Program-made: the position numbers and the translations under genes
The notes under the pieces: model-generated
Database searches by the model: none
What the model was told of the DNA's origin: nothing
The model's input: only the letters and a program-made list of their open reading frames with translations
Part shown: piece after piece, positions 44,490 through 46,400 of the stretch
How positions within the stretch are numbered: the stretch's first letter is position 1
Layout of the letters: each line of letters begins with the position of its first letter
Assembly: GCF_026571515.1 (NCBI RefSeq)
Contig: NW_026852812.1
Coordinates: 190,256-254,255, forward strand
Direction: 5' to 3'
DNA: 64,000 nucleotides
Source of the DNA: Ruditapes philippinarum
Lineage: Eukaryota

Positions 44490-46400
44490 AAACAAGAGGG
44501 CCATGATGGCCCTGAAGTCGCTCACCTGTACATAGGCCCCCGGAGCAAGGCCAGTTTAAAGCCCGGGGCTTTTATTTGAACAAACTTTGTAGACAACCAT
44601 TAGAAGATGTTTCATGCTAAACATCTAAGGTCTAGCTCATTGGGATTTTTAAAAGAAGATTTTTTTAAGTATTTTCTTTACACATATAGTTAAAAACAAT
44701 GACACACCTGGGGCAGGGCCAGTTTTGACCCAAGGGCTTTTATTTGAACAATCTTTGTAGACACTTACTAGAAAATGTTTCATGCTTAATATCTAAACTC
44801 TAGCTATTCGGGTTTTTTAAAAGAAGATTTTTAAGTTTTTGCTATACTTGTATAAGGAAAATCAATGTCCCCCTGGGGCGGGGCCAATTTTGACTCCAGG
44901 GCTTCTATTTGAACAAACTTTGAAGACACTCACTAGAAGATGCTTCATGCTTAATATCTAAACTCTTGCTATTTGAGTTTTTTCAAAGAAGATTTTTCAA
45001 TTTTTGCTATAGTTTTACACATATAGGGAAAATGAATGACCTCCGGGGCGGGGCCAATTTTGACCCCAGGGCTTTTATTTGAACAAACTTGGTAGACACC
45101 AATTAGAAGATGTTTCATGCTAAATATCTAAGCTCTAGCTCTTTGGGTTCTTTAAAAGAAGATTTTTTAAGTTTTTACTATATGTATAAATGGAAAATCA
45201 ATGACACCCTGGGGTGGGGCCAACTTTGACCTCAAGGCTTTTATTTGAACAATCTTGGTAGACATCCATTAGAAGATGTTTCATGCTAAATATCTTAGCT
45301 CTAGCTCTTTTGGTTCTATAAAAGAAGATTTCTTTTAAGTTTTTACTTTATGTATATAAGGAAAATCAATGACCCCCTGGGGCGGGGCCAATTTTGACCC
45401 CAGGGCTTTTATTTGAACAAACTTGGTAGACATTCATTAGAAGATGTTTCATGCTAAATATCTTAGCTCTAGCTCTTTTCGTTCTTTAAAAGAAGATTTT
45501 TTAAGTTTTTACTATATGCATATAGGCAAAATCAATGACCCCCTGGGGCGGGGCCAATTTTGATCCCAGGGCTTTTATTTGAACAAACTTGGTAGACACC
45601 CATTAGAAGATGTTTCATGCTAAATATCTTAGCTCTAGCTCTTTGGGTTCTTTAAAAGAAAATTTTTTAAGTTTTTACTATATGTATATAGGGAAAATCA
45701 ATAACCCCCTGGGGAGGGGCCAATTTTGACCCCAGGGCTTTTATTTGAACAAACTTGGTAGACATCCATTAGAAGATGTTTCATGCTAAATATCTTATCT
45801 CTAGCTCTTTTGGTTCTTTAAAAGAAGATTTTTTAAGTTTTTACTATATGCATATAGGGAAAATCAATGACCCCCTGGGGCAGGGCCAATTTTGATCCTA
45901 GGGCTTTTATTTGAACAAACTTGCTAGACACACATTAGAAGATGTTTCATGCTAAATATCTAAGCTCTAGCTCTTTGGGTTCTTTAAAAGAAGATTTTTT
46001 AAGTTTTTACTATATGCATATAGGGAAAATCAATAACCCCCTGGGGCGGAGCCAATTTTGACCCCAGGGCTTTTATTTGAACAAACTTGGTAGACACTCA
46101 CCAGAAGAAGTTTCATGCCAAAAATCTAAGCTCTAGCTCTTTGGGTTTTTTAGAAGAAGATATTTTAAGTTTTTTCTTTTGGTTGCCACGGCAACCAGAG
46201 TTCTGCATGGAATTAAATTCTTTGAACAATTTTTAAAGGTGACCACCAAAGGAACATTCCTGTGAAGTTTGGATGAAATTGGCTTAGTGGTTTATGAGGA
46301 GATGTCATTTAAAGTAAAAGTTTACGGACGACGGACGGAGGACGGACGAAAAGCGATCACAAAAGCTCACCCTGTCACTTTGTGACAGGTGAGCTAAAAA
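44490..46400. mobile_element. Helitron-like element carrying an internal satellite array of about 170-bp units x about 10 (TEP1 intron)
   Basis: Head acaagagggccatgatggccctgaagtcgctcacctg. Array unit ggggcggggccaattttgaccccagggcttttatttgaacaaacttggtagacac..cattagaagatgtttcatgctaaatatctaagctctagctctttgggttctttaaaagaagatttt. 3' end (gacgga)n-like, then hairpin gctcaccctgtcac/gtgacaggtgagc, then taaaaatg. Confidence 0.65.

Follow-up and report, generated by a model that had tools for sequence, protein, structure and literature searches.

Identity and organisation of the element

The locus examined here raises the question of whether a satellite array bounded by two conserved flanks constitutes a mobile element and, if so, of what class. 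The array lies in the second of two satellite-bearing elements in the window, that is, the whole 64-kb stretch of DNA that was analysed, and this element (element 2; 44491–46400, minus strand, 1910 bp) is very probably a non-autonomous Helentron (HINE) of the Helitron-N2_CGi / Cg_HINE_1 lineage of Crassostrea gigas. Its ends were placed where similarity to a short copy in the same window, and to 96 copies from marine metagenomes, stops. The class to which element 2 belongs, the non-coding rolling-circle transposons of the Helentron group, is already well-described mobile DNA. HINEs have gone under the earlier names of pearl, DTC84, DINE-1-like 'MITE' and pearl-type MITE.

According to the HINE scheme, the left flank consists of a 5' subTIR, an IR and a microsatellite, and the right flank of a 3' subTIR and a palindrome (PMC7492417, PMC4067079). 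Examination of the minus strand of element 2 revealed a subTIR pair, an IR hairpin, a 3' palindrome, a microsatellite and oriented repeats. Read 5' to 3' on this strand, the order is a T-run, the 5' subTIR and IR, (GTCY)n, one Box 3-type unit and ten 166-bp monomers, past which come the 3' subTIR, a 17-nt palindrome and CTTGTT; the minus strand runs from TTTTTAGC to CTCTTGTT, and the plus strand from AACAAGAG to GCTAAAAA. Alignment to the C. gigas boxes showed Box 1, Box 3 and Box 2 to be collinear on the minus strand, and together with homology to the Cg170-family monomer these matches place the element in the Helitron-N2_CGi / Cg_HINE group 1 lineage. Both the anatomy of element 2 and its homology to the oyster elements in four modules are established by these comparisons. 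The original prediction of a probable Helentron with fixed ends and a variable internal satellite is supported, since every Helentron terminal feature that could be tested was found. It had read the element from a conserved head to a hairpin tail, and the modules stand but the direction does not, the head being the Helentron 3' end and the hairpin tail with its A-run the 5' end. The plus-strand orientation is also the one adopted when pearl/DTC84 elements were described earlier as 'MITEs' (PMC3879986).

Terminal structures

The 5' terminus is a T-run, TTTTT on the minus strand (46396–46400), which is matched by a T-run in the 13 complete metagenome copies, where it is followed by A/G and then GCTCACC. 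Between two and five Ts are described at HINE boundaries (PMC4067079), and in element 2 the boundaries comprise TTTTT at the 5' end and ...TTGTT followed by T at the 3' end. The A-rich stretch noted at this position is present, not as a tail but as the 5-nt 5' T-run of the minus strand. The adjoining 5' subTIR, AGCTCACCTGT (46385–46395, minus), matches the start of the C. gigas Box 1 and is complementary at 10 of 11 nt to the 3' subTIR, ACAGGTGAGCG on the minus strand (44519–44529), with which it pairs and which lies inside the Box 2 match; the 5' subTIR starts 5 nt, and the 3' subTIR ends 29 nt, from the respective ends of the element. DNA folding indicated pairing of the IR, GTGACAGGGTGAGCT (46364–46378, minus), with the region of the 5' subTIR in a 5' hairpin (46364–46395) of 14 pairs with one bulge at −13.5 kcal/mol (z −4.7), with none of 200 shuffles as good, so that the hairpin proposed earlier is upheld with its 13-bp stem corrected. 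The apex of this hairpin varies across 19 copies and is still self-complementary in each form (TCAC/GTGA, AGCC/GGCT, AGCAC/GTGCT, GCAC/GTGC). A Box 1-like block at the start of the element (46353–46396, minus) shares 75% identity with Box 1 of Helitron-N2_CGi/N2C_CGi (z 8.8), and the start of elements with these termini may be written as TTTTTAGCTCACCTG. The GACGGA-like repeats noted previously were located at 46324–46348, where they read on the minus strand as a (GTCY)n microsatellite, CGTCCGTCCTCCGTCCGTCGTCCGT. The microsatellite follows the IR, an arrangement also seen in Cg_HINE and DINE-1.

At the opposite end, Box 2 of element 2 shares 76% identity with the oyster Box 2 (z 9.4). The fold of this region contains a palindrome, AGGGCCAT-C-ATGGCCCT (44497–44513, minus), with a 7-bp stem and a 3-nt loop, which forms the core of what had been called the head. 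Its stability in a 60-nt context is not above that of shuffles (z −0.7), and support for the palindrome therefore comes from conservation as opposed to stability: in the 96 contigs, retrieved with a search pattern in which the stem was fixed, it is conserved with a variable loop, and two compensated variants (L083 and L095) were observed. The terminal CTTGTT (44491–44496, minus) is the point at which similarity among the 96 copies stops exactly, and the complete 3' terminator takes the form CAGGTGAGCG NNNN AGGGCCATCATGGCCCT CTTGTT. The constrained part of the element is its terminal signals, as seen in compensatory changes in the 5' hairpin and an invariant 3' terminator.

These termini bear directly on two other classes of transposon. 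The first is a pearl/DTC84-type MITE, moving by cut-and-paste with inverted repeats, a 2-bp AA (=TT) target-site duplication and a DDE transposase, and indeed the bivalve architecture of L flank, core repeats, (ACGG)n, R flank and AA ends was first described in these terms (PMC3879986), while As flank element 2 when it is read on the plus strand. However, the inverted repeats lie subterminally, at unequal distances from the ends (5 nt versus 29 nt), a separate terminal palindrome is present, the T/A runs at the ends are of variable length and in Helentrons count as part of the element, and the homologous oyster elements, catalogued as Helitron-N2_CGi, have been re-classified as Helentron derivatives, all of which makes a MITE improbable. 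Less probable again is a non-autonomous element of the canonical Helitron (Helitron1) type, despite the Repbase name of the oyster relatives ('Helitron-N2_CGi'), the 3' hairpin and the lack of an obvious target-site duplication. Canonical Helitrons have a 5'-TC, a 3'-CTRR and a hairpin approximately 11 nt from the 3' end, and insert between A and T (PMC4067079); neither strand of element 2 shows the 5'-TC, the 3'-CTRR or a hairpin so placed, which refutes the canonical terminal rules here, and element 2 has subTIRs whereas canonical Helitrons do not.

Internal array and Box 3 segment

The centre of the HINE is occupied by an array of 10 monomers of approximately 166 bp (44532–46174, minus), assigned to the Cg170/HindIII satellite family on the basis of Tandem Repeats Finder, monomer comparison and a profile search. 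Tandem Repeats Finder reported 44562–46174 with a period of 166, 9.7 copies and 88% matches; a 170-bp satellite array had been described, and the array itself is borne out with the period revised to 166 bp. The monomer profile detected 10 units in the 64-kb window, all of them within element 2. Inner units share 88–96% identity and edge units 75–84%, and the monomer consensus is 63% identical over its full length to the C. gigas CL1 monomer (z 10.7; 0 of 300 shuffles).

Between the microsatellite and the array lies a single-copy Box 3-like segment (46175–46323, minus), identified by alignment with Box 3 (69% identity over 46221–46323, z 10.3), the oyster Box 3 aligning to element 2 over approximately 103 of 156 nt only. 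A Box 3-type segment serves as the tandem-repeat unit in related elements at loci L091 (80%) and L097 (z 9.6), and Box 3-type units are tandemly amplified at 14746–15558 of the window. The presence of tandem Box 3 units in sister elements fits the view of HINEs as satellite-DNA nurseries. Resemblances of the 166-bp monomer to the segment at 46175–46323, to the 161-bp monomer of element 1 and to the repeat at 14746–15558 were dropped (z 0.1–1.7 versus shuffles).

That unit number varies inside a single subfamily is established by two metagenome loci, L024 and L040, which carry 2.9 versus 4.7 units and are 88% identical elsewhere, the difference in length being due mainly to two unit-sized gaps within the array. 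The original prediction that the satellite grows from 0 to at least 10 units thus holds as regards variable number, by virtue of this pair, but not as regards the short copy at 63637 from which it had been drawn.

The short copy at 63636–63783

That short copy is a 148-bp element (63636–63783, minus) recognised by its end motifs and box scores, with the same termini as element 2 and without the IR, microsatellite, Box 3 or array. The head motif ACAAGAGGGCCATGATGGCCCT occurs at 44492–44513 and, with one mismatch, at 63637–63658, and gave no match in 100 shuffles; the tail motif GGTGAGCTAAAAA has exact matches at 46388 and 63771. Since the tail motif alone, with two mismatches allowed, was found four times versus 2.6 expected, which is not above chance, it counts as evidence by being paired exactly with a head motif that is correctly spaced and oriented. 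The expectation that the head would recur at 63637 in a short array-less copy with a shared tail was accordingly confirmed at both ends. Box 1 and Box 2 scored z 4.7 and 6.7, respectively, and Box 3 z 0, and the palindrome folds at −7.5 kcal/mol (z −3.3).

Element 2 and the short copy share 81% identity over the last 45 nt and 74% over the last 60. The family rule of Thomas et al. 2014 calls for an identical subTIR of at least 11 bp; the 3' subTIRs, ACAGGTGAGCG in element 2 and TCAGGTGATCG in the short copy, agree at 9 of 11 positions and so fall short of the family/subfamily rule. Judged by sequence, the two elements have a common terminal type but do not form a subfamily. The notion that the short copy is element 2 minus its array was ruled out, as only the termini are held in common (Box 3 z 0, last 60 nt 74%), and the inference of 0 to 10 units from that pair fails for the same reason.

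Recurrence of the termini in marine metagenomes

The 23-mer 3' motif was found in 96 marine-metagenome contigs, at least one of which is from a clam-like (Mya-like) bivalve. Recurrence of the head motif beyond the window is thereby borne out, the 96 contigs being independent and the boundary of similarity sharp. Of the 96 copies, 89 carry the sequence CAGGTGAGCG, allowing at most two mismatches, upstream of the palindrome, from which it is separated by 4 nt in 88 and by 5 nt in one; this subTIR was absent from the search pattern, in which the palindrome stem was fixed. The next base beyond CTTGTT is T in 67 of the 96. Complete copies (n = 13) range from 284 to 2132 bp with approximately 0–7 repeat units, 5'-type sites share the orientation of the 3' motif at a ratio of 22:1, and among the loci with monomer hits only one departs from the shared orientation of monomers and 3' motif. 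When the window was compared with the loci by Megablast, only one match emerged (73%, to the monomer), which indicates that the metagenome contigs derive from other species. No hits to the 3' motif were found in viral contigs, and a search of literature full text with the terminal sequences gave irrelevant matches only, the box match having come from a published supplement.

The 3' terminator (CAGGTGAGCG, 4 nt, AGGGCCAT-N-ATGGCCCT, CTTGTT) is base-identical in this genome, in the related species represented by L097 and in approximately 90 contigs of several marine metagenomes, while all of the internal sequence has been replaced many times among copies with the same terminator; the oyster version differs in the palindrome only. 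A single Helentron lineage, either active throughout deep divergences among bivalves or horizontally moved from one bivalve to another, and repeatedly seeding satellites from its Box 3 segment, is conceivable, if rather unlikely.

The idea of a satellite array lying by chance between unrelated sequences, or of a SINE-like retroposon with an A-rich tail, draws on the AAAAA end of the plus strand and on the free Cg170-type arrays also known in oysters, but is contradicted by the recurrent termini and has almost no likelihood, given that both flanks recur together in the second copy in the window and in many metagenome contigs, that neither a tRNA, 7SL or 5S head nor an Rfam match was found, that the 'tail' is the 5-nt 5' T-run, and that all 10 monomers in 64 kb are inside element 2.

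Insertion site and coding capacity

Element 2 is an intronic, sense-oriented insertion in the TEP1 orthologue, a bivalve telomerase-associated gene, and gave no indication of a host function. The exons of this gene gave no hits exceeding 93% identity. In the TEP1 orthologue of the related species (L097), a HINE of the same family is located in another intron (13445–14510), and the intron orthologous to that containing element 2 has no HINE. An orthologous empty site was not found in L097, where the introns are too diverged to align, nor was a paralogous empty site found when the joined flanks were compared with the window and all loci. The right flank (46401–46640) was considered as a relic of another HINE and rejected as not significant (z 2.0; 15 of 300 shuffles), showing only a 26-nt match to 14754–14779.

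Element 2 is without coding capacity. For the ORF at 46305–46601 (minus, 98 aa), only the last 96 nt of which lie inside the element, there is neither a Pfam match nor a record of a called gene, in keeping with the earlier view that it is not a gene. The ORF at 46087–46236 likewise has no Pfam match, ORFs wholly inside 44491–46400 are short only (approximately 40–50 aa), and the element gave no Rfam match and no tRNA hit. No autonomous Helentron with these termini, bearing a Rep/helicase/endonuclease ORF, was seen in the window or the 97 loci, the long ORFs of which, judged by eye, resemble reverse-transcriptase, piggyBac-like, hAT-like and HSP70-12-like sequences. In practical terms, annotation should mask the region as a HINE/Helentron repeat and not call the ORF as a gene.

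Proposed mode of movement

By analogy with what is established for Helitrons and Helentrons, an autonomous Helentron would provide, in trans, a Rep-helicase(-endonuclease) that nicks element 2 at its 5' end, one strand would be peeled off or copied by rolling-circle replication, and copying would stop at the 3' subTIR and palindrome. Integration of the single strand would presumably follow at a T-rich (TT) site and leave no target-site duplication. The array inside the element would travel as cargo, and its unit number might change during or after transposition via unequal exchange or replication slippage, a mode of growth that would fit the most similar units lying mid-array and the oldest at the edges.

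Comparison with element 1 and with known systems

Element 1, with its 161-bp array (~38350–40400, minus), has the same layout as element 2. It has TTTTT, a subTIR/IR hairpin ATGCCCCCGCCAT...ATGGCAGGGGCAT (−12.5 kcal/mol, z −4.5), a (TCCGTCAT)n microsatellite, the array and a 3' subTIR-like ATGCGGGGGCAT, with a weak fold at the 3' palindrome. Its subTIR is unrelated to that of element 2, which makes it a different Helentron family by the rule of Thomas et al.; Box 1 and Box 2 are unmatched in it (z ~0), and no relationship could be detected between its monomers and those of element 2.

Among known systems, element 2 resembles DINE-1 of Drosophila and HINE-Mo and HINE-Cq of mite and mosquito in its 5' subTIR and IR, microsatellite, 3' subTIR and stem-loop (PMC4067079). 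These are the founding non-autonomous Helentrons, with optional central tandem repeats, boundary T-runs and a preference for TT targets (PMC4067079). The likeness is one of layout, similarity in sequence not being expected. Their subTIRs are 12–15 nt as opposed to 10–11 nt in element 2, and 6 nt separate the palindrome from the 3' end in element 2 versus 8–35 nt in the mite families. Compared by description, the layout, when read on the plus strand, is also exactly that of pearl (CvA/CvE/CvG) in Crassostrea virginica, DTC84 in Donax trunculus and MgE in Mytilus galloprovincialis (PMC3879986), which consist of an L flank, 1–5+ core repeats, (ACGG)n and an R flank with a subterminal/terminal inverted repeat and have AA ends (PMC3879986); element 2 has 10 units whereas approximately 5 is typical of those elements.

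The likeness to Cg_HINE_1 / Helitron-N2_CGi, and to N2C_CGi (Cg_HINE_10_13), extends to module order and to homology of each module (PMC7492417, PMC8268682). The 3' palindrome is AGGGCCAT-C-ATGGCCCT in element 2 but GGCCCATGGGCC in the oyster box, and the 5' hairpin has TCAC/GTGA at its apex where the oyster has AGCC/GGCT. A divergence of 25–37% from C. gigas Helitron-N2_CGi indicates another species or subfamily. Both elements end in CTCTTGT, and element 2 provides a clean example of the known oyster and clam pattern in which short euchromatic satellite arrays ride inside Helentron derivatives.

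Anatomy and orientation of the satellite-bearing element

The satellite-bearing element at 44491-46400 (element 2) is a textbook HINE, or non-autonomous Helentron, and its lineage has previously been described from oysters. Its anatomy is modular. Tandem Repeats Finder delimited an array at 44562-46174 with 9.7 copies, 88% matches and a period of 166 bp, instead of the 170 bp given in the original prediction. Of the ten monomers distinguished in the array (44532-46198), the six in the interior (m4-m9) showed mutual identities of 88-96%, and the edge monomers, three at low coordinates and one at high, were 75-84% identical to the remaining units. 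The window has two copies of the head motif ACAAGAGGGCCATGATGGCCCT, one at 44492 and another at 63637 that differs by one mismatch, shuffles having given no match, and GGTGAGCTAAAAA is exact at both 46388 and 63771. The microsatellite lies at 46324-46348, as described, and a hairpin is predicted at 46364-46395 (-13.5 kcal/mol, z -4.7). Repeat finding, motif matches and folding therefore bear out the array, head, tail, microsatellite and hairpin as first noted from the sequence. The element has no coding capacity: the minus-strand ORF at 46305-46601 (98 aa) starts in the flank, with just 96 nt reaching into element 2, has no Pfam match and is absent from recorded gene calls, in keeping with its original dismissal. 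Neither Rfam families nor tRNAs were found in the window.

In published HINEs, the left flank bears a subterminal inverted repeat (the 5′ subTIR), a complementary inverted repeat (IR) next to it and a short microsatellite that is often (GTCY)n. A variable segment comes next, then the central tandem repeats, and in the right flank a palindrome lies after a 3′ subTIR; Helentrons are associated with boundary T-runs, a preference for TT targets and absence of target-site duplication (PMC7492417; PMC4067079). Agreement with Helentron terminal rules had been proposed as a check, and element 2, when read on the minus strand, fits the HINE layout feature for feature. The 5′ end comprises, in order, TTTTT, AGCTCACCTGTCAC-AAA-GTGACAGGGTGAGCT, TTTGTGATCGCTTTT and CGTCCGTCCTCCGTCCGTCGTCCGT, the interior comprises ∼150 nt of single-copy sequence plus the ten monomers, and the 3′ end comprises ACAGGTGAGCG, ACTTC, AGGGCCAT-C-ATGGCCCT and CTTGTT. 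Complementarity between the 5′ subTIR and the 3′ subTIR extends to 10 of their 11 positions. Given this fit, the supposed head is the 3′ terminator and the hairpin tail with its A-rich tail is the 5′ end, such that the predicted orientation was reversed. The same orientation was used in older descriptions of pearl/DTC84 'MITEs', which list an L flank, core repeats, (ACGG)n, an R flank and AA at the ends (PMC3879986).

Recurrence and structural constraint of the termini

A scan of metagenome contigs with the pattern AGGGCCATNNTGGCCCTCTTGTT, which has 21 specified bases, found 96 contigs, whereas the 3′ motif was absent from a viral-contig collection. Similarity stops exactly after CTTGTT in all 96, the next base being T in 67, and hence the head motif recurs beyond the window, with a sharp boundary. 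The subTIR CAGGTGAGCG, which lies outside the search pattern, is present with no more than two mismatches in 89 contigs, and is 4 nt from the palindrome in 88; upstream of it the contigs split into several unrelated subfamilies. Complete elements of 284-2132 bp are present in 13 contigs. Their 5′ ends are of one type (T-run, A/G, GCTCACCTG, IR, TTGTGAT, (GTCY)n), and six of the elements contain an array, with 2.2-7.1 units and a period of 138-165 bp. Sites of the 5′ type share the orientation of the 3′ motif by 22:1, and monomers of the window's satellite family, present in ∼25 loci, are co-oriented with the motif in all but one. A neighbouring gene in contig L059 shares 76% identity with an HS12A-like protein of Mya arenaria, indicating that at least part of the contigs are bivalve DNA. 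None comes from the window's own species; the sole megablast match between the window and the contigs was a 73% monomer.

In contig L028 (354-3429), and also in L053, L055 and L018, window-type monomers start 3-5 nt past the CTTGTT end of an element, and in L028 they also end right before the 5′ T-run of that element. This arrangement suggests either one HINE inserted inside another's array, or a composite arising from read-through past the terminator.

The terminal hairpins are constrained. The apex of the 5′ hairpin varies among copies, being TCAC/GTGA in the window and L032, AGCC/GGCT in oyster Box 1 (described below) and L087, and AGCAC/GTGCT, GCAC/GTGC or AGC/GCT in others, and every version is self-complementary. 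Since the stem of the 3′ palindrome was fixed by the search pattern, the only informative copies are seven further degenerate ones, of which two have compensated stems (L083, AGGCCCA/TGGGCCT; L095, GAGGCCA/TGGCCTC). The loop of the palindrome varies freely.

The short copy and variation in unit number

The array-less short copy at 63636-63783 carries a T-run, a truncated 5′ subTIR, a 3′ subTIR identical to that of element 2 at 9 of 11 positions, the palindrome and CTTGTT. IR, microsatellite and Box 3 similarity (z = 0; Box 3 being a conserved oyster block described below) are absent, and over the last 60 nt it shares only 74% identity with element 2. By the criteria of Thomas et al., the two are different subfamilies with a common terminal type, and the pair itself does not therefore show growth of an array from nothing. 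The proposed growth of the internal satellite from 0 to at least 10 units does not follow from this pair. Arrays of different size within a single subfamily are documented instead by L024 and L040, which are 88% identical: with a unit of 141 bp, L024 has 2.9 copies and L040 has 4.7, and their difference in length is due mainly to two unit-sized array gaps (127 and 132 nt).

Near the window end, CTTTTTAAGCTCAAC-TATTCGAAGAATAG at 63946-63975 (minus strand) looks like another HINE 5′ end in degenerate form, with a T-run, AGCTCA and a short hairpin. As it lies 190 bp upstream of the 5′ end of the short copy, it may be part of a composite or tandem structure with that copy.

Host gene and neighbouring insertions

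Minus-strand exons of a TEP1 (telomerase protein component 1) orthologue extend over most of the window (∼14000-50100), including those encoding the TROVE domain (49265-49501 and 43428-43748), DUF4062 (36417-36647 and 35859-36164) and the second beta-propeller (14004-14264). Element 2 is intronic and in sense orientation; the exon matches on either side of it end at 47641 and start at 43655. The TEP1 exons of a related species in contig L097 (ENA ERZ25073285) are 75-83% identical, and its 1635-bp intron orthologous to that of element 2 contains no HINE. Two introns downstream, at 13445-14510 of L097, is a 1.06-kb HINE of the same family, with an array of ∼6 × 151 bp Box 3-type units and a 3′ terminator, CAGGTGAGCGATCC AGGGCCATCATGGCCCT CTTGTT, identical to that of element 2. 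Its host intron is orthologous to that of element 1 in the window. These data fit independent insertions of element 2 and the L097 HINE; the introns are too diverged for L097 to provide a base-precise empty site.

Element 1, the other satellite-bearing element (38350-40400, minus strand), occupies the next TEP1 intron, likewise in sense orientation, and has the HINE layout of element 2 with sequences of a different family. TTTTT is followed by a hairpin, ATGCCCCCGCCAT-ATA-ATGGCAGGGGCAT (-12.5 kcal/mol, z -4.5), an (TCCGTCAT)n microsatellite, an array of 161 bp × 9.7 that also gives a higher-order signal at 323 bp, ∼250 nt free of repeats and a 3′ subTIR-like ATGCGGGGGCAT. Its 3′ palindrome is weak.

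Other repeats were also observed in the window. A foldback-like structure at 59370-61240 has inverted arms at 59378-59473/61139-61234 (89%) and 59643-59689/61049-61095 (100%), and encloses a perfect 28-bp × 6 tandem array (59504-59672); a 244-aa ORF (59370-60104) translates the 28-bp repeat and has no credible domain. A palindromic MITE-like family at 373-623, 2538-2786, 6234-6489 and 33557-33609, with at least three full copies, has arms of ∼104 nt that are 93% complementary and 31 nt apart (e.g. 6243-6346/6378-6481). Both strands have tRNA-like heads (GGTGGCCTAGTGGTTAAGG...GGGTTTGAGCCC) whose bodies are related (7644-7680, 32697-32858, 1278-1524, 20476-20617, 41568-41786 and 49074-49215), suggesting a tRNA-derived SINE family; ARAGORN and Rfam gave nothing at threshold for these heads.

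Alternative classifications and mobilisation

Classification as a MITE is the historical description of this architecture; it is disfavoured by the asymmetric subterminal repeats of element 2, by its separate terminator and by the classification of its homologues as Helentrons. The TC...CTRR ends and A^T target of a canonical Helitron are absent, and the recurrence of the termini as a pair rules out a free satellite or SINE.

By analogy with Helitron and Helentron biology, the HINE would be mobilised in trans by a Rep-helicase(-endonuclease). Rolling-circle replication would begin at the 5′ end and stop at the 3′ subTIR/palindrome, and integration would be at TT without duplication. The array may have grown via unequal exchange or slippage, the central units being the most homogeneous and the edge units presumably older.

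Relationship to oyster elements

The oyster carriers of the Cg170/HindIII satellite are Helitron-N2_CGi/N2C_CGi, i.e. Cg_HINE_1 and Cg_HINE_10_13 (PMC7492417 Table S4), for which three conserved boxes from Repbase have been printed: Box 1 marks where the element starts, Box 2 where it ends, and Box 3 separates the microsatellite from the repeats (PMC8268682 supplement). All three align to the minus strand of element 2 in the correct order, Box 1 at 46353-46396 (75% identity, z 8.8), Box 3 at 46221-46323 (69%, z 10.3) and Box 2 at 44492-44532 (76%, z 9.4). Similarly, the 166-bp consensus aligns over its full length with a CL1 monomer of C. gigas (Cg170 family; sequence from the supplement) at 63% identity (z 10.7, 0 of 300 shuffles as good). 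Every module of element 2 is thus homologous to the oyster lineage, and the extent of divergence indicates a different species or subfamily.

The Box 3-like segment (46175-46323) can itself serve as a repeat unit, since it is an 80% match to a unit tandemly repeated in L091 (158 bp × 2.2) and also matches the ∼151-bp unit present in about six copies in the L097 HINE (z 9.6). Additionally, four dispersed or tandem Box 3-type units, spaced by 147, 293 and 296 bp, were observed at 14746-15558 of the window (minus strand); these match the L097 repeat with z 5.5 (0 of 300 shuffles) and probably represent an array from a third HINE that has become degraded. Thus, HINEs of this lineage carry Cg170-type arrays, Box 3-type arrays or both, paralleling the oyster Cg_HINE_10_13, which has two arrays.
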